A DNA stretch of 53,752 bases from Candidatus Parcubacteria bacterium. GTDB lineage: Bacteria; Patescibacteriota; Minisyncoccia; JAHIHE01; JAGLIN01. The DNA lies in NCBI GenBank assembly GCA_023132875.1, contig JAGLXN010000008.1, forward strand, positions 1 through 53,752, in the 5' to 3' direction. This document shows, piece by piece, positions 14,927 to 53,715 of the stretch (its first letter is position 1; each line of letters opens with the position of its first letter). Position numbers and translations under genes: made by a program. The notes beneath the pieces were generated by a model. That model saw only the letters and a list, made by a program, of their open reading frames with translations, was not told the origin of the DNA and made no database searches.

Positions 14927-14962
14927 CTATTGTAGATTATAAAATTATTAATTTTAGTTTAC

Positions 14963-15030
14963 TTCGTGTGAATATTAGTTTATTTAGTGTTTATTATAGA
15001 AGCCACTAATAAAACCAATATTCGCACTAA
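14963..15030. repeat. TTCGTG..TATTAGT repeat element
   Basis: About 30 bp nearly identical to the start of 19712-19788. Confidence 0.7.
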
Positions 15031-15041
15031 AAAAACTAAGA

Positions 15042-21053: not shown

Positions 21054-21959
21054 TTATTCAAACAAATCAGTGCTTAAATACCTTTCTCCGTTATCTGGCA
21101 AAATTACTACTATCGTTTTGCCTTTTTTTAGTTCTCTTGCTTTTTGAAGAGCAATATACATAGCAGCACCAGAACTCATTCCAGCTAAAATCCCCTCCTT
21201 TTGAGCTAGCATTTTTGAAACAGTAAAAGTTTCCGGCACTTCCTCTTTTGATATTTTAATAATCTCGTCAAAAGCATTATTTTGAAAAAGGTCTGTTTGC
21301 TTAAGCTCTTCAGAATTTCTAAGTCCTTGAATACGCGCGCCTATCTCAGGCATAACTCCAATAACTTTAATCTTTGAATTATATTCTTTTAAACACTTTG
21401 AAACTCCAACTCCCGTGCCAGCAGTTCCTATGCCTATAACAACCATATCAACTTTACTTTTAGTCTGCTTTAGAATTTCTTTGCCTGTAATCTTATAATG
21501 AGCCATTACATTAGCTGGATTTCTAAATTGATCAAGATCCGCGTATTTTTTCGAGTTTTCAGTTAATATCTTTTTTTTTACTTCAGTCGCGCCGTCCGTA
21601 CCCTTTGCGCTTGAAGATAAAAATAATTCTGCTCCATACGCTTTGATTAATTTTCTACGCTCAATGCTTACCGATTCCGGAATAATGATTGTAATTCTAT
21701 ATCCTTTAACCGCGGCAACTATTGCCATAGCAATGCCAGTATTGCCAGAACTTGCCTCTATTATAACTTTGTCCTTGGTCAATTTGCCTGACTTCTCGGC
21801 AGCTTCAATCATATAAAGAGCCATTACACTTTTTATAGATCCTCCTATATTATATTCCTCTAGTTTTGCCAAAACCGTAGCATCGCATGGATTTGTAAGT
21901 TTGTTTATTTTTACTATCGGCGTATTGCCGATCAGACTTAAAACATTCTCATGAATCAT
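21054..21959 (-). CDS. cysK: Cysteine synthase family PLP enzyme
   Basis: IGNTPIV, AKLE..N.GGSIK, EASSGNTGI, GTAGT and GMSSGA motifs; CysK versus CysM not resolvable by eye. Confidence 0.85.
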   Translation of the reverse strand: MIHENVLSLIGNTPIVKINKLTNPCDATVLAKLEEYNIGGSIKSVMALYMIEAAEKSGKLTKDKVIIEASSGNTGIAMAIVAAVKGYRITIIIPESVSIERRKLIKAYGAELFLSSSAKGTDGATEVKKKILTENSKKYADLDQFRNPANVMAHYKITGKEILKQTKSKVDMVVIGIGTAGTGVGVSKCLKEYNSKIKVIGVMPEIGARIQGLRNSEELKQTDLFQNNAFDEIIKISKEEVPETFTVSKMLAQKEGILAGMSSGAAMYIALQKARELKKGKTIVVILPDNGERYLSTDLFE

Positions 21960-24100: not shown

Positions 24101-25393
24101 TCATATTGGTAATTCCGCAGGCGGCTTGCCTTTCTTAGCTTCAACCCTAGGAGCTACAGGAGCCTTAACTTCAATGGTTGGAAAGTGAAACAATGTTGCT
24201 AATTCTTCTGTATTTAAAACATAGCTTCTTTGATCAAATTCTCTTTTTTTATATCTTCTAAGAATTTTTCTCTTTTTCAAAGCTTTCCTGTATTCAGTAA
24301 GAAAATAATAGGCGCTTGTTTTAGTTTTTCCATCGGGAGCAAAACTATTTAAATCTTGAGAACCAAATTGAGAAAAATAGGAAAACGCTATGGCATTCCC
24401 TTTTGTTTTGTCAAAAATATCTCTCTTTGATAAATAAATCCAACGAATATCTGTTTCAAATCCCGGTCTTCTTGTATTGTTTTCTATAGCGGTAACTACG
24501 TCCTTTTCTCCCGGAGAAAGATGAAGCATCATGCTTATTTCTTCTTTTTTTTCTTTTTTATCTTCCTTTTCTATTAAACTCTGCGGTGAAAAAAAACCAA
24601 GAATCGTATACCTTCCAAGATCAACTATTTCACTTACAATAAGCGAAAAAAATCCTTCTCCTTTTTTATTTTTGTTATCTTTTCTCCCAATAAGCTTAAG
24701 CACTAAAGAATCAGCTTCCTTTTTCCAATCATCACCAACTGCTCTAATGAGAATTTGAATCCAAAGTTGCTCTCCTTTCTGCAATTTACTGACCCCTTCA
24801 ACAATATTTGAAATCGGATCAACAAATTCTCCTGACGCTGGATCTTCAAACTCTTTATAGATTCTCAGCGGATAAGCATCTTCTTTGTTTAATTTCATAT
24901 CAGCTCCCCACAATTCATAATCTTTACTCGGTATATCATCAGGAACATCAGTTACATAATCCTCAACTTCTTTTATCTCAGCTTCCGGATATTGCGCATA
25001 TATCTGAGATTCTACCATCTCTAAGGATTTAACCGGGGTTCTAATATAAAAATGAATATCACCTTCTATGCTTACAATTTCCAAGCTAAACCATATATCC
25101 ACAATACCTTCTAAATAAACATCATATAAAGTATCTATTATAACATCAAAGGTGCTGTATATGGCCGAAAAAAACTCTTCCATTGTTTTTGGCCTCTTTT
25201 CTATTTCTTTAGGAATTTTTACTTCTAATAATTTCCATTTGATATTCCTTATATGTTTTTCCTGCACATAACTAATCCATGCAAGTTCAAAAATAGGCCA
25301 CAAAACCAGTGGCGTAAAAAACCACCACCACTCACGATAAAAAATAAGAGCTTCCTTAAGCGATTCTGCTATTACAAAAGAAGATGTTAGCAT
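24101..25393 (-). CDS. Membrane-anchored partner protein of the ATPase
   Basis: N-terminal TM segment; FSLEIVS, QIYAQYPEAEI and ELATLFHFP pattern typical of proteins preceding such ATPases in CPR genomes (recalled, not searched). Confidence 0.7.
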   Translation of the reverse strand: MLTSSFVIAESLKEALIFYREWWWFFTPLVLWPIFELAWISYVQEKHIRNIKWKLLEVKIPKEIEKRPKTMEEFFSAIYSTFDVIIDTLYDVYLEGIVDIWFSLEIVSIEGDIHFYIRTPVKSLEMVESQIYAQYPEAEIKEVEDYVTDVPDDIPSKDYELWGADMKLNKEDAYPLRIYKEFEDPASGEFVDPISNIVEGVSKLQKGEQLWIQILIRAVGDDWKKEADSLVLKLIGRKDNKNKKGEGFFSLIVSEIVDLGRYTILGFFSPQSLIEKEDKKEKKEEISMMLHLSPGEKDVVTAIENNTRRPGFETDIRWIYLSKRDIFDKTKGNAIAFSYFSQFGSQDLNSFAPDGKTKTSAYYFLTEYRKALKKRKILRRYKKREFDQRSYVLNTEELATLFHFPTIEVKAPVAPRVEAKKGKPPAELPI

Positions 25394-26936: not shown

Positions 26937-27812
26937 TTATTTACAACAATCTGGCACAGAAGGTGATTTTGGCATTGTCCATATTTTTACTACTCCTTCG
27001 GTTGAAATTTTCGACATTATTTCTTTATCAATATCGATTTTTTTCTTACAATCATTTGCTAGCTCCCTTTCTTTGTCTATCTCTTTATACATATCAACTT
27101 CTATAAATTCTGGACAAGCTTCACAACCTATATGATAATATCGCATAGCCTCTTTATATCCCAAGTCTTCACATTTAACAATTTCTTTAAAAATTTCTTT
27201 TCTCTGTTCCTCGCTTAATCCAAAAAGATTTTCTTCTATTCTTTCTTTATCTATAAAGTCAGTAAATTCATAAGTTAGCTTTTGATCCTTTCCAATGTCA
27301 GCTTGGCTCCAATCACCATTAGGCGCCCATTCGGCTTTGGCTAATGTGTAAGCTCCGTCAATTTGACCTTTATCAAAGTAGAAAAAAATAGCCAATGCAT
27401 CTGCATTTTTTGCCTCATAATCATTAACTATTTTTTCACTAATTGCTTTAATTTGATTTTTAGTAGTGGGATTATTATTAACAACAACTCTGACTCTGTA
27501 TCGTTTAGCAAGAGCATGTGAAATATCTTCTTCTTCAACAATTTCATAATTAGTGGTATTTAAAATATCTTCTTTTTCTGTTTGTTCGCTCTTTAATTCT
27601 GAAGTTTCATTATTTGAATCTAACAAGACTATCATTACAAAAAAAAGAATTAAAATCGTTAATATAATTTTAACAAATTTATTCCAGTTTGTTTTTTTCC
27701 AAATATACCAAATAGCTACAAATGGTAAAAATATGAGAATAATTAAAATTCCCCACCATTTTTTATACCACTTTTTATGTTTAACTTGCTCTTGTTTTTG
27801 TTCTTCTTGCAT
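26937..27812 (-). CDS. Hypothetical membrane-anchored protein
   Basis: KKWYKKWWG followed by two hydrophobic helices and a Cys-containing extracytoplasmic part. Confidence 0.75.
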   Translation of the reverse strand: MQEEQKQEQVKHKKWYKKWWGILIILIFLPFVAIWYIWKKTNWNKFVKIILTILILFFVMIVLLDSNNETSELKSEQTEKEDILNTTNYEIVEEEDISHALAKRYRVRVVVNNNPTTKNQIKAISEKIVNDYEAKNADALAIFFYFDKGQIDGAYTLAKAEWAPNGDWSQADIGKDQKLTYEFTDFIDKERIEENLFGLSEEQRKEIFKEIVKCEDLGYKEAMRYYHIGCEACPEFIEVDMYKEIDKERELANDCKKKIDIDKEIMSKISTEGVVKIWTMPKSPSVPDCCK

Positions 27813-27834
27813 ATATTTATGTTAAAAAATTAAT

Positions 27835-29403
27835 TTAATATGACCACGATGACGATTCACACGGAACACCGTTATTATCGCCATCAAGTTTATGAATATC
27901 ATTATTAATTCCACCGCAAATATCAAAAATTCTTTGAGCATCTACTTGATTTCCAAAATCAGAACAATTATAAAAATCATAAGAACAAATCACATAATTC
28001 CCAAAATCCACTCCATTAATCGTATAAACCAAATCCAAATCATAACCAATAGTTGACTCTAACAAAACCTTAGTTCCAACATCGCCATTTGGTACAAGCT
28101 GATAAATATCTATTTGTCCATCCACTCTTACCAAATCAGAAACAATAAAAGAATCCATTTCACTTTGGCTAACCGTCAAAATATCTTCCCATTTCAAATG
28201 ACCATAGCTTTCAAAAACTTGCGGATTCAGAACTAATCTTTTAAATTGTTTTCCGTTTTTATATTTTACAATATAAACATCCGGATTGTTGCCAGTTTTT
28301 ATTACTGCCCCTTCTGGAATTGGACTATTAGGATTATTTTCATTTGTTTCGGACTCGTGTTGTGTCGTAGTTTCTGTATTATCTTTATCGTTAGTTTCAA
28401 CTTGACATGATTGACTTAGGACAGGATTGCCGTCAATACAATTATCAGGAGAAAATGAAATAATAGATCTTGTTTGTTTCTCGTCTATGCATTCGCTCCA
28501 GTTTGAATATATCCATGAAGTGCAAATAGTAAAAGTTGGTGTATCGGGATGAGGTTCAGTTAAAATCGGTAAATAATTTATATAATTTTCTACGGTAATG
28601 TCATCATTTTTGTCATAAATCGTTGAATCAATAACATTTACATCTTGAGTGTCCCAATAATTTTCAGAAGCTGAAAAAGTATTAATGCTATCAGATCCTA
28701 ATTTTAAAACTATATCATTCATATTAATAAAGGAATTATATTTGATTATGACTTCTGATGAATCTTGACTCTCAACTATTATGTAGAAATTCCAGTAGCC
28801 TGTATTGTTAACTGAATGTCCTTTGTAGAAAAAATTATTTTTTATGTTAACCTTGATATTATTGTCAATATATATTCTAAAACCATAAGTATTTATAAAC
28901 TTATTATAACTAATATCAATATTATCAGTAGGAAACCAAATCGTTGATTGTTCAGCTAAATTAGCAAGTTCAGAATATTGCAAATAGAAATGTCCACTAC
29001 GATTACCACCTGGCCAAAACATAAGTCCATTTTTAACTGTACAATACTTTAAATCTAAAAATGCATTTTCATATCCAGTAACATTAAAAAAATCAGAATT
29101 ACTCCCACCATCAAAAATAATTTTATTGTCGACAACTCCATGGGCATAAATTATTCCATTCAATAAAAACATGTCGCCATTCGTAGGTTTATTGATAGTC
29201 ACACCCGACTCAATTGTCAATGTAACTCCTGTTGGAATTTGAACTGTATCTATTACAATATAAGGACTATTATTTAATGTCCAAGTTGTGTTAGAATTAA
29301 TAATTCCGCTAACTTCTGTTTCTGCGTTTGCTTGTCCTGCTAACATAAAACAATTAAATACTGCTAAAACCAAAATTGATAAAAATGTAAATTGTTTTTT
29401 CAT
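27835..29403 (-). CDS. Secreted modular protein: beta-helix-like region, Cys repeat and Excalibur Ca-binding domain
   Basis: Signal peptide; TTWTLNNSPY..VQIPTGVTLTIESGV beta-helix opening; CTSWIYSNWSEC; C-terminal YNCSDF..DIHKLDGDNNGVPCES. Confidence 0.75.
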   Translation of the reverse strand: MKKQFTFLSILVLAVFNCFMLAGQANAETEVSGIINSNTTWTLNNSPYIVIDTVQIPTGVTLTIESGVTINKPTNGDMFLLNGIIYAHGVVDNKIIFDGGSNSDFFNVTGYENAFLDLKYCTVKNGLMFWPGGNRSGHFYLQYSELANLAEQSTIWFPTDNIDISYNKFINTYGFRIYIDNNIKVNIKNNFFYKGHSVNNTGYWNFYIIVESQDSSEVIIKYNSFINMNDIVLKLGSDSINTFSASENYWDTQDVNVIDSTIYDKNDDITVENYINYLPILTEPHPDTPTFTICTSWIYSNWSECIDEKQTRSIISFSPDNCIDGNPVLSQSCQVETNDKDNTETTTQHESETNENNPNSPIPEGAVIKTGNNPDVYIVKYKNGKQFKRLVLNPQVFESYGHLKWEDILTVSQSEMDSFIVSDLVRVDGQIDIYQLVPNGDVGTKVLLESTIGYDLDLVYTINGVDFGNYVICSYDFYNCSDFGNQVDAQRIFDICGGINNDIHKLDGDNNGVPCESSSWSY

Positions 29404-29428: not shown

Positions 29429-30628
29429 TTAATTACTACTCAATTCTAGCTGACTTATTATAAAATTTAATCTTCTAAGTAAGTCGTCATAAGTCAAAAT
29501 ATCAATAACATTTTTATATTTTCTTCTGACAACTTCAAAGTCGTTTTTTTGATCTTTACTAAGTCCGGCATCTCTTCCTATAATAATCAAACCGCATGGA
29601 TTAATTATTTTTATACTAAATTTTTTTGGTAGACTATCTTTGTATTTATTCGTTAAATATTTCTCTCCATTTTCACCCCATCTATTTAAGTTAAATATAT
29701 ATTTTTCAACTTGCATCACTGTTCCAGATAAATCTCTTAATGGTATATAATTATTTCTGTATAGACCTTTTGTAATTATTAGATTTTTCCCAGGTAGCTT
29801 TATTTCTACTATGTCAATATTTCCTCCAGCATCTACCAATAAATAATCTAATCTCTTGTTTTTCTTGTGGCTAGATTTTACTGGAGCTTCATCAAAGACA
29901 TCTATATATTTAGGATATAAAAGTAAAATTATCTTGTGCATTTCTTTTTGCCATTGTCTTTCATTATATTTATCTTCGTTTTTTAACATTTCTTTTAATT
30001 CTTCGTGGACAATTCTATATTTTTCTAATTCTCCTTTTTGTAATAGCTTAGATATGTCGTTACCTTTTGTACTGATTTTTTTATTCATATAGTCTTTGTA
30101 TTTTTCTTCACCATCAATTGTTGTATCAAAATAATTTTTCAAGACAATGCTAAGCCGAGCATTAACATACTTTTCGAGTTCACCTTTTTTTGGAAAGTCA
30201 TCTAGCATTTTGTTAAATTCTTCTTTTGGAATATGATTATCTTTTTCTCCTCCAATATAAATATCTTCGTTGAGTAGTTTATCAATTTTTCTAAAAATTG
30301 ACACTCCTCTTGATGCAATAAAAAATTTCCAAGTAATCTTAATATCTTTGTAAATAAATACATCTTTGCTTATATCCAACTTATTTCTATCAATTTTATA
30401 ATAATTATCTTCTACTAGTTTGCCAAAAATGAATCTAGCTTGTCCGTCGTAATCTTCCTCTAAATTTTTATCTAAACTTTGTTCAAATAAATCTTTTCTT
30501 TTGAATACAAAAGTTTTCTTTATCGGTATTGCTTCTTGTTTTCTTAGTTTTTTAAAAATCCACTCAGGATTACCGACAGGTTCGTAAATAAGTATCAACA
30601 GATTATTTTCTACTCTAAATTCAATCAT
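29429..30628 (-). CDS. sduA: Shedu anti-phage nuclease (DUF4263)
   Basis: NERQWQ..LLLYP, DYLLVDAGGNIDIVEIK (PD-(D/E)xK-like), LSGTVMQVEKY, GLIIIGR and IDILTYDDLL motifs. Confidence 0.85.
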   Translation of the reverse strand: MIEFRVENNLLILIYEPVGNPEWIFKKLRKQEAIPIKKTFVFKRKDLFEQSLDKNLEEDYDGQARFIFGKLVEDNYYKIDRNKLDISKDVFIYKDIKITWKFFIASRGVSIFRKIDKLLNEDIYIGGEKDNHIPKEEFNKMLDDFPKKGELEKYVNARLSIVLKNYFDTTIDGEEKYKDYMNKKISTKGNDISKLLQKGELEKYRIVHEELKEMLKNEDKYNERQWQKEMHKIILLLYPKYIDVFDEAPVKSSHKKNKRLDYLLVDAGGNIDIVEIKLPGKNLIITKGLYRNNYIPLRDLSGTVMQVEKYIFNLNRWGENGEKYLTNKYKDSLPKKFSIKIINPCGLIIIGRDAGLSKDQKNDFEVVRRKYKNVIDILTYDDLLRRLNFIISQLELSSN

Positions 30629-30663: not shown

Positions 30664-30839
30664 AAAAAAAGCTTTCCGCCAGCTAATAGCCCCTTTCGGT
30701 GCTATCACTATACCCTTTCGAGTATAGACTCGTCCTACAAAGTACTGGCTAGAAAGCCATTTCTATATAGGACGAGATTTAAACCATACTCCAAGCAAAA
30801 AGCCCAAAGGTTAGGTTACTAAATTGTTACTCATTTTCT
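30664..30839 (-). ncRNA. Candidate structured leader RNA upstream of sduA
   Basis: Closing stem GCUUUUUGC/GCGGAAAGC, 9-bp CUCGUCCUA/UAGGACGAG stem, two GAAA-capped hairpins and a U7 tail; G-U wobbles favour the minus strand. Confidence 0.6.
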
Positions 30840-43693: not shown

Positions 43694-45151
43694 CTATCCT
43701 ACCAATACATCTGCTACTTTGTATATATCCCCCGCTCCCATAATTAATAATATATCATCTGGTTTTATTTTCTCATCAATTAATTTTCTTGTTTCTTCCA
43801 AATTTTCAGCGTAGAAAATTTCTCCAGAAGGCGACACGTCGACGTGTCGCCTTCGTTTTATATCTTCCACTAAATCTAAAGAACTAATATTTTGATCGTC
43901 GCTTTCTTCACGACCAGCTACATCAAATATTTCCGCTAAAATAACAACATCCGCCCCGTCAAAACTGTTTAAAAAATCTTTATATAATTTTTTAGTCCGA
44001 TTGTGCTGATGCGGTTGGAAGACAGTGAAGATTCTTTTATTGGGATAAAATTGCCTTGCCGCTTCTATCGTCGCTTTAACCGCCGTCGGATGGTGCGCGT
44101 AATCAGAAATCACTAAGGCATTTTTATATTTCCCTTTTATTTCAAACCGCCGCCAAATCCCTGAGAAATTTAACAATGATCTTTTTATAATTTCAACTGA
44201 AATATTTAGAGTAAATCCTAAAGCAATTACTCCCAAAACATTATAAACATTAAACAGCCCCGGCACTTTCAAAACAAACTCGCCCAGATCTTTATTATTA
44301 TAAACCACTTTAAATTTAGTTTCTCCATTTTTAAATTCAATGTCACAACCCCGCACATTATTATTTTTATTTAAACCAAAGGATAGTGTTTTGAATTTGT
44401 AATTTTGAATTTGTAATTTATTTGTTATTTGTAATTTTTTCGCCCAAGGCGGACCAGCTTCGGACTGGGAATTTGTAATTTCCTCATCATCGCCATTATA
44501 TATTAGCGTTCCATCTTCCGGCAAATGCGAGATAAATTCCCTGAACGCGTTTTTAAAATCTTTAATGTCTTTATAATAATCCGTATGATCAAGTTCTATA
44601 TTATTTAAAATAATTATTTTAGGATATAAATTTAAAAATGACCTTTCGTACTCGCACGCCTCAGCAACAAAATATTTGCTTTTTCCAACTCTTAAATTGC
44701 CATCATATTTTGGCATGATACTCCCCACAATAATAGACGGATCAATTCCGGCATCATCTAAAAGTAATCCCGCCATCGCAGAAACTGACGATTTTCCATG
44801 CGTCCCGCAAATTGCAATTCCGTATTTATCATTAAAAACAAGCCCAAGAGATTCAGGATAAGTGATTGTTTTTATTTTTAATTCTTTTGCTCTTCTTAAT
44901 TCAGGATTATCTTTTGGAACAGCAGTTGTATAAATTACCAAACCTGTATCTTGAGAAATATTTTCTTCCGACTGTCCTATATAAATTTTAACTCCCAATT
45001 TTTCTAATTTTTCCGTCATCAAAGAAGGGCTCATATCCGAGCCACTTACTTCTCTGCCCTTTTCTTTCATAAGTCTGGCAATCGCGCTTAGTCCTATTCC
45101 TCCGATACCTATAAAATGAATTTTTTTTATTTTATTTAAGTCTATATTCAT
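43694..45151 (-). CDS. murC: UDP-N-acetylmuramate--L-alanine ligase
   Basis: IHFIGIGGIGLSAIA, GTHGKSS, VAEACEY, ELDHTDYY, RRFE, DYAHHPT and FQPHQ motifs. Confidence 0.95.
   Translation of the reverse strand: MNIDLNKIKKIHFIGIGGIGLSAIARLMKEKGREVSGSDMSPSLMTEKLEKLGVKIYIGQSEENISQDTGLVIYTTAVPKDNPELRRAKELKIKTITYPESLGLVFNDKYGIAICGTHGKSSVSAMAGLLLDDAGIDPSIIVGSIMPKYDGNLRVGKSKYFVAEACEYERSFLNLYPKIIILNNIELDHTDYYKDIKDFKNAFREFISHLPEDGTLIYNGDDEEITNSQSEAGPPWAKKLQITNKLQIQNYKFKTLSFGLNKNNNVRGCDIEFKNGETKFKVVYNNKDLGEFVLKVPGLFNVYNVLGVIALGFTLNISVEIIKRSLLNFSGIWRRFEIKGKYKNALVISDYAHHPTAVKATIEAARQFYPNKRIFTVFQPHQHNRTKKLYKDFLNSFDGADVVILAEIFDVAGREESDDQNISSLDLVEDIKRRRHVDVSPSGEIFYAENLEETRKLIDEKIKPDDILLIMGAGDIYKVADVLVG
43827..43854. 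repeat. 28-bp perfect palindrome in-frame in murC
   Basis: GAAGGCGACACGTCGACGTGTCGCCTTC, encoding RRRHVDVSPS. Confidence 0.92.
44440..44468. repeat. 29-bp double-hairpin element in-frame in murC
   Basis: Reverse complement CCAGTCCGAAGCTGGTCCGCCTTGGGCGA, encoding QSEAGPPWA. Confidence 0.9.
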
Positions 45152-45181: not shown

Positions 45182-46294
45182 CTATTTAGCTATTTTAATA
45201 ATTTCTTCCGCTATTTTTCTAGCAGCTTCTGGATGGGCTAATCGTCTGGCAGCTCTTTGCATTTCGATGGTCTTTAGATGGCTCTGGAAAATTTCATGTA
45301 TGACATTTAAAAGCAGATGGGGCTTAAGATTTTTCTCGCTTAACAAAATCGCTGCGCCAGATTCGGAATAATGGAACGCATTCTTTTTTTGCTTGTCGCT
45401 TATTGCTGACGCAAGAGGAATTAAAATACTTGGCTTTCCTACGGTCATAATTTCCGCGACAGTGTTTGCGCCCGCCCTGCTGATTACAAGATCACAAGCC
45501 GCGTAAGCATCGCCAGCCCTTTCTCTAAAAAATGGAAATAAATGATAATCATTTAAATTAGGAATGTTCATTTTTTCAACAATTGATTTTACTTTATCAT
45601 AATTAACAATACCGCATTGATGAATAATTTGGTAGCCTTTTAATAAATCGGGAAGAATTTCCAGCACAAGATTATTTATTTCTTCCGCTCCTTTGCTTCC
45701 TGCCATAATAAAAATAATTGGCTTTTCTTTGTTTAGAACAAAATTTTTCATGGATTTTTCTTTATTTCCTTGTGTGATAAAGCTTATTGTGGGATTGCCT
45801 GAAAAAAATACTTTCGGTGAAACATAAATTTCTTTACTATCGCTAAAAGAAACCGCCACCTTTTTCGCAAAACGAAACATAAATTTATCCATAGGGCTCG
45901 CGACTGCGTCAGATTCATGGATAAGTATAGGAATACGAAATATCCAGCCAACTATGATAACAGGCAGGGAAACATGACCGCCTTTTGAAAAAATAACATC
46001 CGGCATATAATTAAAAATATGAATTATAGACTGAAAAAAGCCAATAATAAACTTAAAAAAATCAATAAAAATCAAAGGAGAGAAAGAATTCCTCTGTTTC
46101 GCGGCCTGTATAACCTTATATGGAATTTCTGTTCCTTCAAGCATTTCTTGCAAGAAATGGCTCTTTGAGCTTATCAACATAACCTCTAGAGAATCAAAAT
46201 TAGATTCATCTGCGAGTTTTTTAAGTTTTTCATAAACTGCAATTATCGGATATAGATACCCTTTTAAAGATTCACCAGTAAATAAAATTCTCAT
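45182..46294 (-). CDS. murG: MurG-like glycosyltransferase (GT28)
   Basis: FSKGGHVSLP, IHESD, IHQCG, ISRAGANT and KPSILIPL; lies between ftsW and murC. N-terminal glycine loop is degenerate. Confidence 0.85.
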   Translation of the reverse strand: MRILFTGESLKGYLYPIIAVYEKLKKLADESNFDSLEVMLISSKSHFLQEMLEGTEIPYKVIQAAKQRNSFSPLIFIDFFKFIIGFFQSIIHIFNYMPDVIFSKGGHVSLPVIIVGWIFRIPILIHESDAVASPMDKFMFRFAKKVAVSFSDSKEIYVSPKVFFSGNPTISFITQGNKEKSMKNFVLNKEKPIIFIMAGSKGAEEINNLVLEILPDLLKGYQIIHQCGIVNYDKVKSIVEKMNIPNLNDYHLFPFFRERAGDAYAACDLVISRAGANTVAEIMTVGKPSILIPLASAISDKQKKNAFHYSESGAAILLSEKNLKPHLLLNVIHEIFQSHLKTIEMQRAARRLAHPEAARKIAEEIIKIAK

Positions 46295-46436: not shown

Positions 46437-47531
46437 TCATTTCCCACGCCTTGAAATACTCAACAAAACACCTGCTCCTACTAGCGAGGTTATTAATGCT
46501 GATCCGCCATAGCTAATGAATGGTAGGGGTATTCCGGTCAAGGGAATTAGCGATGTAATAGCAGCCATATTAATTAACGCCTGAAAAGTAATCCAAGAAG
46601 TAATCCCGACAGCAACAAATTTTCCAAAATTATCAGGCGCCTTGCTTGCAATTTTAAATCCTTTCAAAGCAAAAATAAAAAATAAGGCCATAAGAATAAA
46701 CAATCCAATTATGCCAAGCTCTTCTCCTGTAATGGCAAAGATTGAATCGCCTATCGGTTCTGGAAGATAATTGAATTTTTGTCTGCTACGCCCAAACCCG
46801 AGACCTAAAATTCCACCTGAACCAAGCGCCAGCAGAGCTTGGTTTATTTGATATCCAATCCCTTGAGGATCAATTTCAGGATGCATAAATACCATAAATC
46901 TATTCATACGATATGGCGCAATTTGCACCAATAAAAATAATCCGGCAAGACCTCCCGCGACGAGAGCAAAAATATGGCTTATTTTCGTGCCTGATGCAAA
47001 ATACATAATCACAGCCGTTAGAACAATAATACTAAGAGTGCCAACATCAGGCTGCATTATTAACGGAATAGCTATAATTAAAACCACAACAATAAAAGGA
47101 ATTAGTAAATTTGAAAAGTCTTTTGCATTTTTCTTATTTTTCTCAAGCCAAGCGGCAAGATATAAAATAAAAGTCAGTTTGATAAATTCTGAAGGCTGAA
47201 AGCTTATGCCTGCAATATCTATCCATCTGTTAGCCCCCTTTAGTCCGAATCCCAAGCCGGGAATAAAAACTACCAATAAAAGAATTAATGTGATAATTAA
47301 AAAAAACAAGGCATGCTTTTTAAATAACCTATAATCAGTCTTTTGAATAAAAAATAAAAGAATAATTCCTGGCAAAAACCCGTATAGAAATTGATGAAAT
47401 AAATAATAATGATTATATCCAAAATTGTTATAACTCATAACTACGCTCGCGCTTGAAATAATAATCAAACCGAAGATTGACAATAGTAAAACTGTGATTA
47501 ATAAAGTTTTATCACAACCATAAAATTTCAT
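46437..47531 (-). CDS. ftsW: Cell division peptidoglycan polymerase FtsW (SEDS)
   Basis: GANRWI, FQPSEFIK, QPDVGT, GYQINQAL.ALGSGG and PLTGIPLPFISYGGS motifs. Confidence 0.95.
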   Translation of the reverse strand: MKFYGCDKTLLITVLLLSIFGLIIISSASVVMSYNNFGYNHYYLFHQFLYGFLPGIILLFFIQKTDYRLFKKHALFFLIITLILLLVVFIPGLGFGLKGANRWIDIAGISFQPSEFIKLTFILYLAAWLEKNKKNAKDFSNLLIPFIVVVLIIAIPLIMQPDVGTLSIIVLTAVIMYFASGTKISHIFALVAGGLAGLFLLVQIAPYRMNRFMVFMHPEIDPQGIGYQINQALLALGSGGILGLGFGRSRQKFNYLPEPIGDSIFAITGEELGIIGLFILMALFFIFALKGFKIASKAPDNFGKFVAVGITSWITFQALINMAAITSLIPLTGIPLPFISYGGSALITSLVGAGVLLSISRRGK

Positions 47532-47632: not shown

Positions 47633-49039
47633 TTATATCTTTATCTTGATATTTTTTAACACAAGATGAATTATTCTGTCAAAACAAAATTTAAATTGCC
47701 GATCGTTTTTCATTATTCCATATCCAACTTGAATATTTGTATATTCCATATCAGAATTTATTAAGCTTCCTTTTTTTACAGTTTGAATTAAAAATTCATT
47801 TTCTTTTAAATCTTTCGCGTAATAAGTTTTCTCTTTTAAAATTAGTTTATCTTTCTTTATTTTGTAAATGCCGGAAGTCATAGATTTCACAATTTTAACG
47901 CGATTCTCATTGGTATTTCTTAAGATTAACTGTGAAAAATTGAAACTCTTCTCCTTGTTCCATTTTACAAAAGAAAAATCAAATGGCAATGGCTCTGATC
48001 TACAACTAATATCAAAAAACTCCGCTAAATGCAAAAACAAAAACGGCACTTGCTTTCTTTGGATTTGAAGTTTTGTAAAAACTGGAATTGAACCAACAAA
48101 ACGAGGATTAATTTCTATAAGATCAGCATTATCGCCACTAACAATAAAATCAAGACCAAAAATCCCCCTGTATCCTATTTTTTTCATATAACTGCCAACT
48201 TTTTTTGTATAATTAAATATTTTCTTTTTTTCTTTGCTTTTCAATTTTTCGCCATACATATAATCATTTCCGCAAGTTCCCAGTTCATTTTTGTTATAAT
48301 CAACTAATCCTGTAATTTGAAATATGGGCTGGCTTATGATTATACCAAGCTCTCCGACATGGACATTTACCGTATATGTATCGCCTTTAATATATTTTGA
48401 AATTTTAACTTTTCTTCCTTTATATTTTTTTATAATTTTATCTAAATCCGTTTTGTTCTTGATTAAAAAAGTAGAGTTTCCCGAATATCCTCGCTGGAGC
48501 TGAATGACATATTTTTCTTTCAAATTAAACAAACCCTGAAACTTTTCATTATTTTCAATCTTTTTTATCTCACTTTTCGCGTTTGGAATCCTAAGCTTTT
48601 TTGTTATTTTGACAAATTCAACTTTGTCTTCTAATTTCCTGTTTAATTCCCACTTATTGCCCAAATACTTAAAATCATTATTATTACATAATCTTGCAAT
48701 TTTTGGACTTGGCTTGAAAGTTATAATATCAGTCATTTTGCCTTTTGACTTCCTTTTTATATAACTCAAAACTTTTTTATCTCCCAAAAGCTTTCCAGAA
48801 TTTTTTATATTATCATCATCAAGACATAAAACTGAAACTTTTTCTTTTTCCAGATAATCTATAATATCAGTTCTTTGAGAACAAATTATATGATAATTTT
48901 TTACTTCTTTTTCAATCCCAACAGCACGATTAGGATTTGGAGTAACAAAAAATATAGGACCAGTTTGTTTGGTATTTAATAATTCTTTGATTTTTTTATA
49001 ATTATTGATCATTTTATAAATAATATTAAATATGAGCAT
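47633..49039 (-). CDS. ATP-grasp domain protein
   Basis: LEDKVEF, YVIQLQRGYSGNST, ISKYIKG and GYRGIFGLDFI..LIEINPRF ATP-grasp motifs. Confidence 0.8.
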   Translation of the reverse strand: MLIFNIIYKMINNYKKIKELLNTKQTGPIFFVTPNPNRAVGIEKEVKNYHIICSQRTDIIDYLEKEKVSVLCLDDDNIKNSGKLLGDKKVLSYIKRKSKGKMTDIITFKPSPKIARLCNNNDFKYLGNKWELNRKLEDKVEFVKITKKLRIPNAKSEIKKIENNEKFQGLFNLKEKYVIQLQRGYSGNSTFLIKNKTDLDKIIKKYKGRKVKISKYIKGDTYTVNVHVGELGIIISQPIFQITGLVDYNKNELGTCGNDYMYGEKLKSKEKKKIFNYTKKVGSYMKKIGYRGIFGLDFIVSGDNADLIEINPRFVGSIPVFTKLQIQRKQVPFLFLHLAEFFDISCRSEPLPFDFSFVKWNKEKSFNFSQLILRNTNENRVKIVKSMTSGIYKIKKDKLILKEKTYYAKDLKENEFLIQTVKKGSLINSDMEYTNIQVGYGIMKNDRQFKFCFDRIIHLVLKNIKIKI

Positions 49040-49071
49040 TTGGTATTGAGTATTGAGTATTGAGCTTGATA

Positions 49072-50163
49072 CTAAATATTAGATACTGAATACTGAATAC
49101 TAGATACTATTTCATCCACCTCACCAAAATTTTCTGCTTTATAAATTTTGCTCTCGTCGATTTTACCAACCTCAACTCTTGCTTTTCCAGAAAGAATACA
49201 AACAGCTCTATTAAATTTATTTTTTCTACTAGCTTTTATAATTCCAGCAAAACTCGCACAACCCTCTGAAGATGTATTTATGTTATTTTTTTCAAGTAAT
49301 TTTGTCGCTTCTTGAATTTCTCTATCAGTAACATAAATTCCTTTTCCTTCGCTTAATTTTATAAGTTCAATGATCTCATTTTTTCTTTTTGTATTTTTTG
49401 CGCCTAGCTTACCAGTGTTTGATTCTTGTTTTTGAATTTTTTCAAATTCAGATGCAATTGAAAATATCTTTCCACTCTGAACAGCAAATAGCTTTGGCAA
49501 CTTTTTAATTCCACCGCTTTCTAAAAGATATTTATATGCTCTGCCAATCCCAATAAATGAACTTCCGCTTGTTACGAAAGTAAAAATCGCGTCCATTTCT
49601 CCTAAATTCTCAAATATTTCAAATGCGATTGACTTAAATCCTTCTATTGATGAATTATTAATAGAGGGTCTTAGATTTTCTATTTTATATTTTGCTGTTA
49701 AATAATTCGCCAGCCGAATTGCTCGTTTTGATTTTATTATTATCGGATTATATTTTTGCATTTTAACGGTCTTTGCTTTTTCAGTTTCTGGAGATATAAA
49801 AATATACAATTTTATTTTCGCCTTCTGGCAATATGCAGCCGCCGCAATCCCTGCGTTCCCGGAAGTTGAGATCACTAGTTTATTTTTGTTATTCTGTTTC
49901 GCCAGTGAAACCTGATAAGCAAGACTCCTGTCTTTGAGTGATCCTGTAATATTTTCGTCTTCCCGCTTGAAATATAAATGATTTATATTTGGTAAATCAA
50001 CTTTAGCAACATTGTTTTGCAGGCGACACGTCGACGTGTCGCCTTCATTTGGGGAATCATTTAAACTTAACCTATTTTCCGACTTTATAAATTCATCATA
50101 AAGTTTAGCATATCGCCAAATGCCTTTTTCTTTTTTGTTGATTTTATTTTGAAAATTTGACAT
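49072..50163 (-). CDS. Fold-type II PLP enzyme (threonine-synthase-like)
   Basis: YFKREDENITGSLKDR (PLP Lys), STSGNAG, VTSGSSF and CILSG motifs; substrate unknown. Confidence 0.85.
   Translation of the reverse strand: MSNFQNKINKKEKGIWRYAKLYDEFIKSENRLSLNDSPNEGDTSTCRLQNNVAKVDLPNINHLYFKREDENITGSLKDRSLAYQVSLAKQNNKNKLVISTSGNAGIAAAAYCQKAKIKLYIFISPETEKAKTVKMQKYNPIIIKSKRAIRLANYLTAKYKIENLRPSINNSSIEGFKSIAFEIFENLGEMDAIFTFVTSGSSFIGIGRAYKYLLESGGIKKLPKLFAVQSGKIFSIASEFEKIQKQESNTGKLGAKNTKRKNEIIELIKLSEGKGIYVTDREIQEATKLLEKNNINTSSEGCASFAGIIKASRKNKFNRAVCILSGKARVEVGKIDESKIYKAENFGEVDEIVSSIQYSVSNI
50021..50044. repeat. 24-bp perfect palindrome in-frame in the PLP enzyme gene
   Basis: AGGCGACACGTCGACGTGTCGCCT, read as GDTSTCRL. 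Confidence 0.92.
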
Positions 50164-50211
50164 AAAAAATCATTTTAATATTTCAATATTTAAACAACTT
50201 AATCTGGGATA

Positions 50212-50239
50212 TTGCATAAATATAAAAATAAACTATAAT
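50212..50239 (+). promoter_or_regulatory. Sigma70-type promoter for the rod-shaped RNA and lysW-like gene
   Basis: TTGCAT-16 bp-TATAAT. Confidence 0.7.
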
Positions 50240-50240
50240 T

Positions 50241-50403
50241 TAAGGAGTTGGAGGTAAATAACATTTCATAATTTCGTCAGAATGTGCGCCAGATGTGCTT
50301 TAAAAAAGATGAGGAATAGCTAAGCTATGCTGAAACTTTTTTAAAGCGCAGATGACGTACAGGCTGGATGAAATTTGGAAGATTATTTACTTCCAACTCC
50401 TTA
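50241..50403 (+). ncRNA. Rod-shaped ncRNA, 6S RNA candidate
   Basis: 21-bp closing stem (50241-50261/50383-50403), internal bubble, 14-bp stem (50295-50308/50336-50349) and apical AUAGC-UAA-GCUAU; G-U wobbles favour the plus strand. Confidence 0.55.
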
Positions 50404-50429
50404 GTAAAGTTAATCATTAATCTAATACT

Positions 50430-50582
50430 ATGACAAATTGCCAAGAATGCAACACTCCAATTCCAATTGAGGAGGAAATACCGGATATAGGAGCTATATT
50501 GGTTTGCCCGTCCTGTGGCGCCGAACACGAAGTTATTGCGACAGATCCGATTGAATTGGAACTTATCGAAGAGGAAAAGTAA
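50430..50582 (+). CDS. LysW/AmCP-like zinc-ribbon carrier protein, 50 aa (not in ORF track)
   Basis: MTNCQECNTPIPIEEEIPDIGAILVCPSCGAEHEVIATDPIELELIEEEK: two CxxC pairs and an acidic tail like LysW, but ending EEEK instead of EDWGE. Confidence 0.85.
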   Translation: MTNCQECNTPIPIEEEIPDIGAILVCPSCGAEHEVIATDPIELELIEEEK

Positions 50583-50680: not shown

Positions 50681-52246
50681 CTATTTCATCAATTTAACCC
50701 ATTCTCTTAAATCCTTATTAGTATTCTCTACATATTTTGAATAAAAATGCGCTGCGCCGGGAGAAATTAAAACAACACTACCTTTTGAAAGACCGGTTTT
50801 TTTATAATATTTTTTCAAAATTTTAATCGCCTCTTGGAAATTCTTTACTTTTATAAAATCTATTTTGTTCTTATTAATCAGCTTTCCAATTTCATCTGAA
50901 GCGTCACCGGGAAATAAAACCAGAAATTTTACTTTATCATTTATTTTCTCTACCAATTTTTGATAATCCATTCTTTTATTATCTCCGCCTGCCAATAAGA
51001 TTATATCTTTATCAAAAGATTCAAGTCCGGCGATTGCCGCTTCTGGAGTAGTTGCTTGCGTATCGTCATAATATTTTATTCCATCTATATTGTAAAGCAG
51101 TTTTAATCTATGTTTTGTGCCGGTATATTCTGATACGCCTTTTTTTATTATCCTCGGCTCTATGCCATAAAGATAAGCAACAGAAACAGCCGCTAAAACA
51201 TTTTCCAAATTATGTTTCCCCGGAATTTTTATATTGTCAATATTACAAATAGTAACAAACTCAGAAGCTAAGCGTCCTATAAAACGCTTAGCTTCTTTTA
51301 TTTTCATTACTATTTTCCCATCTTTTACAAAACATCCTTCTTTTAATTTTTCTTTTCTACTAAATAAAAATATTTTTGATTTTTGATTTTTGATTTTTGA
51401 TTCATTGGCTATTTTTCTTGTTTCTTGATTATCATAATTCAAAACCGTCCAATCCCCTTTCTTCTGATACCTGATTAAATTCTTTTTCGCCTCAATATAA
51501 TTTTCGAAACTTCCATGATCATCAATATGATTTGAAGTAATATTTGTTATTACTCCAATGCGCGGACTTATTCCTGAATTTAACAATAGTTGCGTGCTGC
51601 TTGTTTCCAAAATTAAAACATCATCTTTAGTCATCTCACTAAGCTTATCTAAAACCTGAACATTCTGACGATCATTGCCGGCAAAATAAACTTTAATTCC
51701 CCAACCCTCCTTATCAGGGGGAGAATTTAGCCCCCCTGATAAGGAGGGTTGGGGAGTTTCTGTCCAAGCCTCAAAAATATTATTAATCAATCTTACCGTT
51801 GTTGTCTTACCGTTCGTCCCTGTTACAGAAATTATTTTGCATGGCGCTAGTTCAAAATATAAATTGGTTATAGTTTTAAAAGGAACTCCGCTATCTTTAA
51901 GCTTTTCTAAAATCGGCATATTTTGCGGATATTTAAACCAAACTTGCGAAACAAAAACTATATCCGCCTCTTCAACGCCTTCCAGATAATGATCTTTAAA
52001 ATTTATTCTGATCGGCAAATTCAAAAGATGATTTAAGTCCTCTTCTTTTTTTTTGGATTTTAAACTTAAATGGGTATTATAGTAGACTTTTTTAAAATCC
52101 GCCTTAGGAGAAAAATCATGTCCTGTTATTGATGAAATTCCATTTGCAACCAAAAACTCCGCAACAGCGCTTCCCTCCGCCCCGCCAATTCCGACAATGT
52201 GGATGTTTTTGTTTTTGTATTGATTGAGTTTTTCTGATATTGACAT
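50681..52246 (-). CDS. murD: UDP-N-acetylmuramoyl-L-alanine--D-glutamate ligase
   Basis: VTGTNGKTTT, LETSSTQL, NITSNHIDDHG, PGKHNLEN, HRL and YYDDTQAT motifs. Confidence 0.88.
   Translation of the reverse strand: MSISEKLNQYKNKNIHIVGIGGAEGSAVAEFLVANGISSITGHDFSPKADFKKVYYNTHLSLKSKKKEEDLNHLLNLPIRINFKDHYLEGVEEADIVFVSQVWFKYPQNMPILEKLKDSGVPFKTITNLYFELAPCKIISVTGTNGKTTTVRLINNIFEAWTETPQPSLSGGLNSPPDKEGWGIKVYFAGNDRQNVQVLDKLSEMTKDDVLILETSSTQLLLNSGISPRIGVITNITSNHIDDHGSFENYIEAKKNLIRYQKKGDWTVLNYDNQETRKIANESKIKNQKSKIFLFSRKEKLKEGCFVKDGKIVMKIKEAKRFIGRLASEFVTICNIDNIKIPGKHNLENVLAAVSVAYLYGIEPRIIKKGVSEYTGTKHRLKLLYNIDGIKYYDDTQATTPEAAIAGLESFDKDIILLAGGDNKRMDYQKLVEKINDKVKFLVLFPGDASDEIGKLINKNKIDFIKVKNFQEAIKILKKYYKKTGLSKGSVVLISPGAAHFYSKYVENTNKDLREWVKLMK
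51699..51754. repeat. 56-bp palindrome in-frame in murD
   Basis: 23-bp perfect arms CCCCAACCCTCCTTATCAGGGGG/CCCCCTGATAAGGAGGGTTGGGG, within the peptide TPQPSLSGGLNSPPDKEGWG. Confidence 0.92.
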
Positions 52247-52728: not shown

Positions 52729-53715
52729 TTACTCTACAATCCTTCTCGCCTCCATAAAATCATAATTCTCAAAAACTTTTTTCAGACTTTGCCTGATGAC
52801 TTTTTTCTTTTCTAGTGAAGCGTGAATTAAGCTTATATTGTGCTCCGCCACAGTCTCCGATAGGAACTGCGGCGACTTTATAACTTCAACAATCCCCACA
52901 TGTTTATGCGTGTTGCTTTTCTTTATTAAAAACACCAAATCCCCTGTTTTTGTATTTTTTAAATTTACTTTTTTTCCCATTTCTTTCTGATCCCATGAAT
53001 GCTTTGGCAGAATTATATTCAAAGAATTTTTATACACAACTTGAACTAGTCCCGAACAATCAATCCCTTTCTTGGACTTTCCGCCAAGAATATATTTCGC
53101 ATCTAAATATTTTTTCGCCTCAGATGTTAGTTCCATAGTCCCTTTAGGGCTGTGGAACTTTCTTGCAATTCTTTTATTAGTAATATTTATTACTTTACCC
53201 TTAACTGCATAATTTCCGTTCTTCCATTTTTTATACAATTTTTTTTTCTTAACAACTACCTCTTTTCTACTTACCCACCCCAAAGTCAGATCATTTTGCT
53301 GAACTAATAATTGATCTTCGTTTTTATATAAAACGCGCAATATCTCGCCTTTAAACGCCTGCGAGCACCTGATTCTTTTCAGTATTCTTTGATTTATTAT
53401 TTTATCAGAAACAAATCTTAATTTCAAATCCGCGATTGGACTTTTTACAACCACCCAGCTAATTTCATTTCTCGCATGTCCATCGCTTAAAATTTTCAGA
53501 TTTTCCTTTCTGATTTTTATTTTCTTTTCCCTAAAAGCATTTAATATATGATCTCTCTGATTTTCAGTCAAGGCACTTCCCTTTATTTCAACACTGCTTT
53601 CAAAATTTTTAATATCAATATTAAAAACAGCAATTCCATATTTTTGCTGATATAACTTTCTTAAATTCTCTATAATACTATTTATTTTATCGTCATTGCC
53701 CATAAAGATAATCAA
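52729..53715 (-). CDS. NlpC/P60 (C40) cell-wall peptidase
   Basis: YILGG..GIDCSGLVQ.VY, HVGI and IHAS form the Cys-His-His triad. Confidence 0.9.
   Translation of the reverse strand: MIIFMGNDDKINSIIENLRKLYQQKYGIAVFNIDIKNFESSVEIKGSALTENQRDHILNAFREKKIKIRKENLKILSDGHARNEISWVVVKSPIADLKLRFVSDKIINQRILKRIRCSQAFKGEILRVLYKNEDQLLVQQNDLTLGWVSRKEVVVKKKKLYKKWKNGNYAVKGKVINITNKRIARKFHSPKGTMELTSEAKKYLDAKYILGGKSKKGIDCSGLVQVVYKNSLNIILPKHSWDQKEMGKKVNLKNTKTGDLVFLIKKSNTHKHVGIVEVIKSPQFLSETVAEHNISLIHASLEKKKVIRQSLKKVFENYDFMEARRIVE
53130..53158. repeat. 29-bp palindrome in-frame in the NlpC/P60 gene
   Basis: GTTCCATAGTCCCTTTAGGGCTGTGGAAC, encoding FHSPKGTME; intergenic twin at 6839-6867. Confidence 0.85.

Follow-up and report, generated by a model that had tools for sequence, protein, structure and literature searches.

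A stretch of 53,752 nucleotides from a Candidatus Parcubacteria bacterium (assembly GCA_023132875.1, contig JAGLXN010000008.1, positions 1 to 53,752; hereafter the window) contains, among its peptidoglycan genes, a conserved module of five genes. These code for a predicted cytoplasmic NlpC/P60 cysteine peptidase, a variant of MurD (MurD*), a small LysW-like protein ending in lysine (LysW-K), an enzyme dependent on pyridoxal 5′-phosphate (PLP) that resembles threonine synthase (ThrC), and an ATP-grasp ligase of the biotin carboxylase (BC) type. The module is not a chance neighbourhood, since it recurs with the same gene set in 64 related loci. It is also undescribed: a literature search found no paper mentioning LysW together with MurD, or describing this neighbourhood. 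Our preferred reading, which we hold tentatively, assigns the module to the MurD step, where it would most likely supply D-glutamate (D-Glu) in the absence of MurI, through a carrier pathway of reversed polarity.

The minus strand of the window carries, in this order, the NlpC/P60 gene, an open reading frame (ORF) for a membrane protein of 93 amino acids (aa), murD, a gap of 517 nt, the genes of the PLP enzyme and of the ATP-grasp ligase, ftsW, murG, murC, an ABC transporter gene, and murB. The gap between murD and the PLP gene holds, on the plus strand, the LysW-like ORF. The NlpC/P60 peptidase (52729-53715, minus strand; PF00877, 68.5 bits) has an N-terminal SH3-like region, and MurD* (50681-52246, minus strand) passes the TIGR01087 cut-off with 253 bits against 212. 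LysW-K (50430-50582, plus strand) has 50 aa, ends in ELELIEEEK, and matches PF21344 (Zn_ribbon_LysW) with 36.1 bits for a gathering threshold (GA) of 27. The ThrC-like PLP enzyme of fold-type II (49072-50163, minus strand; 363 aa) matches PF00291 with 152 bits, and the ligase (47633-49039, minus strand; 468 aa) matches PF02655 (ATP-grasp_3) with 46 bits for a GA of 23. A previous sequence-only reading of this region had described the gene order, an RNA, the lysW-like gene on the opposite strand, and a carrier ending in EEEK, and all of these are present.

The 64 loci, some of which are redundant, come from Patescibacteria with around 30% GC and from bacteria with 70-75% GC. When one genome per species was scanned with a profile of the ATP-grasp family, 80 loci were obtained. 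Those with true orthologues show the order NlpC/P60, MurD, LysW (divergent), PLP, ATP-grasp, FtsW, MurG, MurC in Paceibacteria, Moranbacteria, Wirthbacteria, Peribacteria, and further lineages, while the identity of the ATP-grasp protein goes down to about 25-35%. A metagenome scan seeded with LysW-K revealed 24 additional loci and the same picture. In many Patescibacteria an amidohydrolase of the PRK09061 type joins the module. That the LysW-like, PLP, and ATP-grasp genes (the trio) belong together and are linked, in a conserved manner, with peptidoglycan genes, as proposed by the sequence-only reading, is therefore borne out by co-occurrence.

The exceptions to the common order are informative about who accompanies whom. 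In an organism with 74% GC (locus L122), the genes for NlpC/P60, MurD*, LysW-K, the PLP enzyme, and the ATP-grasp ligase make up a single co-directional operon followed by unrelated genes, without ftsW, murG, or murC, and the stop codon of murD* overlaps the start codon of lysW (ATGA). In an organism with 70% GC, MurD, LysW (divergent), and the PLP enzyme are arranged as in the window, and in locus L126 (29% GC) the trio stands with MraY, two FemAB genes, and MurF. When the cluster is split, the PLP and ATP-grasp genes stay with ftsW-murG-murC, and LysW-K is found 0-3 kb from MurD*; at least four distinct rearrangements of this type can be identified (the L087/L111 type, L099, L105, and L108/L109). 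Among the loci with enough flank, none has LysW-K beside the PLP gene without MurD*. Because the split clusters keep LysW-K and MurD* together, and because the two are translationally coupled in L122, MurD is the best candidate for a direct partner of LysW-K. The conserved link is thus narrower than one with the mur operon as a whole, which had been suggested: it is with the variant MurD and with NlpC/P60, and in high-GC bacteria ftsW, murG, and murC are not part of the neighbourhood.

The MurD proteins of the module differ systematically from the others. With MurD* of distant lineages the window MurD reaches 254-392 bits, and with MurD of patescibacteria lacking the module only 162-180 bits, whereas the scores of FtsW are similar for both groups (271-387 with the module and 291-318 without). 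MurD* proteins have in common some 17 residues inserted behind the HDF motif of their N-domain, an inserted WFxYP motif, and a C-terminal loop shortened by two residues, three features that were not found in MurD of Escherichia coli or in the four MurD of module-less patescibacteria. We compared the active-site residues of 26 MurD* with those of five canonical MurD. Residues K115, N138, H183, K198, T321, and K348 are unchanged in all the proteins of both sets. S415, present in the five canonical proteins, is replaced by H, Y, G, E, or F in 26 of 26 MurD*; F422, equally constant in the canonical set, is V, I, or L in 25 of 26; and D182, again found in 5/5 canonical proteins, is N in 24 of 26. 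In the canonical enzyme, K348 and T321 bind the proximal carboxylate of the substrate, the one next to the nitrogen, and S415 and F422 bind the distal one (PMC3527612). D182 is among the residues near the bound Glu, and D182 and K348 are among those that set the stereospecificity for Glu in MurD2 (PMC8788868). As T321 and K348 are kept while S415 and F422 are changed, MurD* would treat the γ end of its substrate differently. MurD* is a distinct subtype of MurD, in which the site for the distal (γ) carboxylate is remodelled, and the residues for catalysis and for the grip on the α-carboxylate are maintained. Two further peculiarities of these proteins can be mentioned. At about residues 166-185, the window MurD* has about 17 additional residues rich in Pro, Ser, and Gly (TETPQPSLSGGLNSPPDKEG), which even its close relatives lack. 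A MurD* of Peribacteria (L032, 458-2509) has 683 aa and includes a DUF559/REase-like endonuclease domain inserted in, or fused to, its C-terminal part.

LysW-K is a genuine LysW relative, but departs from LysW at the end of the tail, where LysW holds its cargo. It scores 31.5 bits with TIGR01206 and 30.2 bits with NF041070, below the respective cut-offs of 53.2 and 75. The zinc-binding cysteines C4, C7, C26, and C29 and the terminal E-E-K are invariant in all the LysW-K orthologs, and the four cysteines together with a tail of consensus (L/V)(I/V)E(E/D)EK are found in all the loci of the true-ortholog clade of the ATP-grasp scan. A canonical LysW (P0336) ends in EDEDWGE, whereas LysW-K ends in E-E-K and lacks the C-terminal Glu used for attachment (compare ...VSVEPLRLELAPEEDEDWGE in P0336 with ...IATDPIELELIEEEK in LysW-K). 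A profile search of 1.84 billion representative proteins gave 616 LysW-like matches, and among the best 149 of these, 21 representatives end in E-E-K. Such strict conservation of the tail suggests a chemical rather than a purely structural role. The invariance of the terminal Lys also makes plausible the previous suggestion that the chemistry of this carrier differs from that of LysW. Homologs of LysX/RimK/ArgX, LysZ, LysY, LysJ, and LysK are missing within 8-10 kb on either side of the module in every annotated locus. In the neighbourhoods examined, the combination that would have spoken against the sequence-only reading, a carrier with a separate RimK or LysX and a PLP/ATP-grasp pair unlinked from mur genes, was thus not observed. 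LysW-K is publicly annotated as "lysine biosynthesis protein LysW." Three database proteins (P0261, P0263, and P0264) are tandem duplications of LysW-like zinc ribbons, of which P0261 ends in LIEEEK and P0263 in LLQEGK.

The best NCBIfam models for the PLP enzyme are threonine synthases, with scores of 72-142 bits that fail every cut-off (167-421 bits); TIGR00260, for example, gives 71.7 bits for a cut-off of 167, and the best ThrC model gives 142 for 421. Searched against the PDB, the profile of the family retrieves ThrC (E = 3e-39), followed by serine and aspartate racemases, and O-acetylserine sulfhydrylase (OASS) enzymes of the CysM/SbnA type are reached only at E of about 1e-8 to 1e-9. 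The AlphaFold2 (AF2) model, with a mean predicted local distance difference test (pLDDT) of 88, also has ThrC as its best Foldseek match, with a template modelling (TM) score of 0.66-0.70 and 22-25% identity. Invariant residues include the Schiff-base K77, the S-G-N carboxylate loop (S101-G102-N103) with the adjoining A104, and the segment N163-L-R-P-S167. When the protein is aligned with HMMER to ThrC of Thermus thermophilus, residues T88, N154, and R160, which we take to be phosphate ligands of ThrC, correspond to A104, P166, and S172, and S155 is retained as S167. The enzyme looks like a fold-type II protein that is threonine-synthase-like yet not a threonine synthase. Public databases name it "threonine synthase" or "PLP-dependent enzyme," and two database proteins (P0048 and P0052) are apparent fusions of the PLP enzyme with the ATP-grasp ligase. 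The window codes for a second fold-type II PLP enzyme (21054-21959, minus strand), of the cysteine synthase/CysM type (PALP, 208 bits; cysKM, 319 bits, just under the cut-off of 344), which is unrelated to the ThrC-like one.

The ATP-grasp ligase is more isolated. It has a full-length match to NF005096 that is far below threshold, and no Ddl, LysX, or RimK model of NCBIfam or Pfam matches it, while a patescibacterial Ddl used as positive control scores 415 bits. Its AF2 model (pLDDT 92) is closest in Foldseek to BC, PurD, and PurT (TM about 0.6, 11-16% identity), without Ddl-like structural affinity. The sequence-only reading was therefore right in that the protein is neither Ddl nor LysX. Invariant positions are K139, D297, and E309-x-N311-x-R313, together with a GTCGNDY motif, so that the protein has the Mg-binding E-x-N motif and the ATP-binding Lys expected of an ATP-grasp enzyme; its E-x-N-P-R motif corresponds to the one of carbamoyl-phosphate synthetase, PurT, and PurK. 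Sequence and profile comparisons with the PDB give only weak motif matches, to carbamoyl-phosphate synthetase and to BesA, and neither these nor Foldseek pointed to a specific functional homolog. The structural model would thus place the ligase, annotated as "ATP-grasp domain-containing protein," in the BC/PurD/PurT class as an uncharacterised family. BC, PurD, PurT, and PurK, its closest relatives in structure, each transfer a small acid to an amine on a larger substrate, in keeping with the loading step proposed below. A protein search found 134 homologs, and all those with a source name are from Patescibacteria. A distant paralogous clade (24-29% identity, about 500 aa; L039-L084) is widespread in Patescibacteria having murI and ddl. 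Its members follow TIM-PGK, convergent to ddl (L040, L055, and L056, at about 10.0-13.1 kb), or have an ATPgrasp_ST/Zn-protease protein on one side and a RimK-like protein on the other (L044 and L061), and neither of these contexts, the second of which consists of further ATP-grasp genes, is informative.

What the module may replace is indicated by the division and cell wall (dcw) loci of patescibacteria that lack it. Four such loci have the order MraY, MurI, MurD (canonical), FtsW, MurG, so that murI immediately precedes murD, and Ddl is encoded nearby; both MurI (194 bits) and Ddl (415 bits) pass the curated cut-offs. Searches with phmmer identified MurI in 4/4 and Ddl in 3/4 of these loci, and NlpC/P60 in none. 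In the 64 module loci, within 10 kb on either side, the same searches found no MurI, no Ddl, and no Alr. They detected NlpC/P60 in 24 of these loci and the amidohydrolase in 16 of them, one or the other taking the position of murI. The NlpC/P60 gene immediately precedes that of MurD* in 24 loci, and the four canonical murD loci lack it. Its orthologs have no signal peptide, and their catalytic Cys and His are conserved, including in the ortholog from the genome with 74% GC. The classical NlpC/P60 bond is the one between γ-D-Glu and a diamino acid. We therefore propose this protein as a cytoplasmic peptidase, and as a candidate either for a γ-D-Glu-Lys amidase acting in release or for an enzyme of murein-peptide salvage. 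Domain and profile searches of the window found no murE, murF, ddl, alr, or murI anywhere in it. The MurE of a module genome is of the canonical diaminopimelate (DAP) type and passes the equivalog cut-off, and presumably it therefore needs a normal γ-carboxylate on D-Glu. Nothing shows the non-standard amino acid for the cell wall that the sequence-only reading had put forward, and with a canonical MurE and a module that sits where murI is found elsewhere, the provision of ordinary D-Glu is the more economical explanation.

To our knowledge, D-Glu occupies position 2 in essentially all known peptidoglycan, and it has two established sources, MurI/D-amino-acid transaminase and MurD2/MurL. It is possible, if somewhat doubtful, that the module is a third route, in which an ATP-driven conversion of L-Glu into D-Glu takes place on a LysW-type carrier and MurD* builds the precursor on protein-bound Glu. 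The cargo and all chemical steps are what we infer from gene content, conservation, linkage, and the residue changes of MurD*. The ATP-grasp ligase would activate the γ-carboxylate of L-Glu as an acyl phosphate and join it to the ε-amine of the C-terminal Lys of LysW-K. This polarity is opposite to that of LysW/LysX and would leave the α-amino and α-carboxyl groups of the cargo free. A cargo tethered by its amine, as in classical LysW, could not be used by the PLP enzyme, because the latter needs a free α-amine. The Lys-ended carrier suggests the reverse tethering, which would leave the amino-acid end open to epimerisation and to attack on the acyl phosphate of MurD*. The tethered Glu would then be epimerised at Cα by the ThrC-like enzyme, and MurD* would couple UDP-MurNAc-L-Ala with the D-Glu still held by the carrier, at its free amine. 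NlpC/P60 would finally cut the γ-D-Glu-Lys isopeptide bond, which resembles the one classically cut by this family; alternatively, it might free D-Glu first. Such a scheme would cover all five genes, the distal subsite of MurD*, the coupling of LysW with MurD*, and the missing murI.

Parts of this scheme have counterparts in known systems. LysW, the amino-group carrier protein (AmCP), and LysX/ArgX of Thermus, Sulfolobus, and Streptomyces offer a homologous small zinc ribbon with an acidic C-terminal tail, an adjacent ATP-grasp gene, and an acidic amino-acid cargo presumed to be held on the tail while other enzymes act. The tail of LysW-K differs in being about five residues shorter and Lys-ended, with a proposed link through the amine of the carrier; the ATP-grasp protein is of the BC/PurD class and not of the RimK/LysX class, and the partners are MurD*, the ThrC-like enzyme, and NlpC/P60 instead of LysZ/Y/J/K. 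MurD2/MurL of Xanthomonas also combines a variant MurD having changed Glu-site residues, an adjacent ATP-using partner, and the lack of murI, and there a one-way conversion from L to D is tied to the MurD step (PMC8788868, PMC5808125). The changes are not the same, as MurD2 has D182E and K348R, whereas MurD* has D182N, keeps K348, and is altered at S415 and F422. The pair also works without a carrier protein, and MurL, which has no recognised domains, is neither an ATP-grasp nor a PLP protein and releases AMP, so that it was ruled out as an analog of the ATP-grasp ligase.

Other comparisons concern single steps. PylC, of pyrrolysine synthesis, and the D-aspartate ligase Asl(fm) of Enterococcus faecium are ATP-grasp enzymes that acylate the ε-amine of a lysine with an amino-acid carboxylate. 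We take PylC to belong to PF02655, and Asl(fm) to act on a peptidoglycan precursor with a neighbouring racemase. The acceptor proposed here is, by contrast, a Lys borne by a protein, and the searches gave no significant sequence match of the ligase to either enzyme. In CysO-CysM and SbnA, a fold-type II PLP enzyme deals with the C-terminus of a small carrier (CysM) or with the amine of an amino acid (SbnA), but CysO is ubiquitin-like with a thiocarboxylate terminus, and CysM and SbnA are of the OASS type, not of the ThrC type. The NlpC/P60 peptidases of the YkfC type are likewise cytoplasmic, with N-terminal SH3-like domain(s) and, by family specificity and not by direct sequence comparison, act on the γ-D-Glu-diamino-acid bond; the NlpC/P60 of the module is distinguished by its fixed place beside MurD* and LysW-K.

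The same genes can be read in other ways. We consider it unlikely that position 2 of the stem peptide is non-canonical, as the sequence-only reading would have it: the PLP and ATP-grasp enzymes would build a derivative or analog of Glu, free or on the carrier, for use by MurD*, or the ligase would decorate the carboxylate of D-Glu in the nucleotide precursor with an amine derived from the PLP enzyme. The altered distal subsite in 26/26 MurD* fits such a change, as does locus L126, which ties the trio to MraY, FemAB, and MurF, genes of stem-peptide tailoring; substitutions on the α-carboxyl of D-Glu are generally known from some Gram-positive walls, and the relatives of the ligase in polysaccharide clusters are compatible with groups linked to sugar nucleotides. 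Against this stand the MurE that passes the DAP-type equivalog cut-off and the unchanged α-carboxylate ligands of MurD*, and neither the Lys-ended carrier nor the replacement of murI finds an explanation. We consider improbable a replacement of Alr and Ddl, with the PLP enzyme as a racemase of alanine (or another amino acid), the ligase making D-Ala-D-Ala or D-Ala-D-X for MurF, LysW-K as an accessory or regulatory partner of MurD*, and D-Glu coming from salvage by NlpC/P60 and the amidohydrolase, which could indeed provide it. Ddl is itself an ATP-grasp enzyme, a racemase-ligase fusion would suit P0048 and P0052, and the nearest PDB relatives of the PLP enzyme after ThrC are serine and aspartate racemases. 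The absence of ddl and alr from all 64 module loci points the same way, ddl being near the dcw genes in 3/4 of the others; but ddl is several genes from murD even there, so that its local absence means little. The ligase, moreover, has no affinity with Ddl in sequence or structure, and the E-E-K tail, the remodelled Glu subsite, and the choice of MurD* as constant partner instead of MurF, MurC, or FtsW, including in the stand-alone high-GC operon, would all be left unexplained.

Salvage of murein peptides as the purpose of the entire module, which we regard as quite improbable, would have NlpC/P60 and the amidohydrolase recycling muropeptides of the host or of the cell itself, LysW-K acting as a zinc-ribbon regulator or as a subunit of MurD*, and the PLP and ATP-grasp enzymes re-processing amino acids. 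It agrees with the general reliance of Patescibacteria on hosts for many building blocks, with a peptidase that is cytoplasmic, as YkfC-type recycling peptidases presumably are, and with the amino-acid permease, VanZ, MraY, amidohydrolase, and NlpC/P60 genes upstream in the same operon. Against it speak the presence of the module in bacteria with 70-75% GC, which we take, from GC content alone, to be free-living, the altered MurD, which salvage alone does not need, and the strictly conserved LysW-K tail, as it hints at chemistry and not only at structure. Finally, the public annotation of LysW-K and its Pfam match to the globular domain of LysW would fit an ordinary LysW-dependent biosynthesis of lysine or arginine lying near mur genes by chance. 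With a carrier below the TIGR01206 and NF041070 cut-offs that ends in Lys and not in Glu, and with no LysX/RimK, LysZ, LysY, LysJ, or LysK homolog in any locus, the canonical pathway is effectively refuted at the level of the neighbourhood, and we give it hardly any credence.

Several observations weigh against the supply of D-Glu on a carrier. The absence of murI holds for 10 kb on either side of the loci, and the comparison is with four non-module loci, three of which are closely related. We know of no precedent for a ThrC-like epimerase. The tail of LysW-K extends beyond the globular domain by only some 5-6 residues, compared with about 10 in canonical LysW, and may be unable to reach buried active sites. 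NlpC/P60 and the amidohydrolase are equally well explained if they recover D-Glu and DAP from murein peptides taken up by the cell, and the trio would then need another role. Two loci (L112 and L115) have LysW-K without any partner within 2-4 kb. Last, the same clade of ATP-grasp proteins occurs without PLP enzyme or LysW in polysaccharide clusters of Chloroflexota/Gemmatimonadota (L031, 7722-11404; L034, 6552-10052), among genes for Polysacc_synt_2, Glycos_transf_4, GT2, and Gfo/Idh/MocA proteins; because of these clade members, the substrate of the ligase could be a sugar-linked carboxylate or amine.

The region upstream of lysW is more variable than the module. A promoter-like TTGCAT-N16-TATAAT, read from the sequence, lies 5′ of lysW (50212-50239, plus strand), where relatives carry TTGACT-N17-TATAAT; its -35 hexamer is weak, matching 3/6 bases, and a consensus scan missed it for this reason. 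It is followed, in the 5′ untranslated region (UTR) of lysW, by a long and near-perfect hairpin of about 166 nt (50240-50405, plus strand), with a minimum free energy of -85.5 kcal/mol and a z-score of -12. The hairpin belongs to no Rfam family at gathering or permissive thresholds, which gave only chance-level matches, and has no further copy in the window. Its outer arms (AAGGAGTTGGARGTAAATAA) are also found in L007, with a much shorter stem, and it is absent from L001 and L013, the UTRs of which otherwise align. For this last reason we read it as an insertion; it has the appearance of a palindromic element that was inserted here, or of a 5′ UTR structure restricted to this lineage, and it is probably outside the core system. 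The RNA noticed by the sequence-only reading is thus this hairpin beside lysW, a lineage-specific insertion and not a conserved part of the system. In ten other loci (L096, L097, L098, L117, L118, L012, L015, L005, L009, and L043), the PLP-lysW intergenic region contains one or two small hydrophobic ORFs (about 70-110 aa) that have a GGAGG ribosome-binding site and a terminator to themselves; they lie 5′ of the conserved TTGACT-N17-TATAAT promoter of lysW, where the window has the hairpin.

The window has a G+C content of about 32%. The PLP/ATP-grasp pair is flanked on the minus strand by ftsW (46437-47531), murG (45182-46294), and murC (43694-45151). In another assembly, which extends the same region upstream, one finds genes for an amino-acid permease, VanZ, MraY, a PsbP-like protein, an amidohydrolase of 525 aa, and an ORF of 106 aa, before NlpC/P60. 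The best model for the amidohydrolase is NF006560/PRK09061, the latter presumably named "D-glutamate deacylase" in CDD. Away from the module, a LOOT RNA (30685-30817, minus strand; Rfam RF03000, with 68.7 bits, which exceeds the gathering score) is directly 5′ of the gene for a protein of 399 aa (29429-30628, minus strand) with a Shedu SduA_C nuclease domain (126 bits). A protein of 610 aa (22209-24041, minus strand) combines TrwB/TraG coupling-protein and HerA-like ATPase domains with a treble-clef zinc finger, and is flanked by several ORFs that match no Pfam family (24101-25393, 26937-29403). The gene for the large subunit of an [FeFe]-hydrogenase (296 bits) adjoins one for a NuoF-like flavoprotein (13157-16046, minus strand), and around them are genes for enolase, iPGM, PGK, GAPDH, TIM, and aldolase, as well as rubrerythrin and thioredoxin/thioredoxin reductase.

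If the supply of D-Glu by this module is confirmed, LysW-K would be without precedent among LysW-type carriers, both in serving cell-wall synthesis and in its reversed polarity, and the chemistry of LysW carriers would extend past the pathways of lysine, arginine, and secondary metabolites. It would also assign functions to protein families now annotated as "ATP-grasp domain protein," as "PLP-dependent enzyme/threonine synthase," or, misleadingly, as "lysine biosynthesis protein LysW." Much of the Patescibacteria and a number of high-GC bacteria possess the module, and, as a set of genes that displaces murI beside murD, it would reveal a new essential step of cell-wall synthesis in these organisms.

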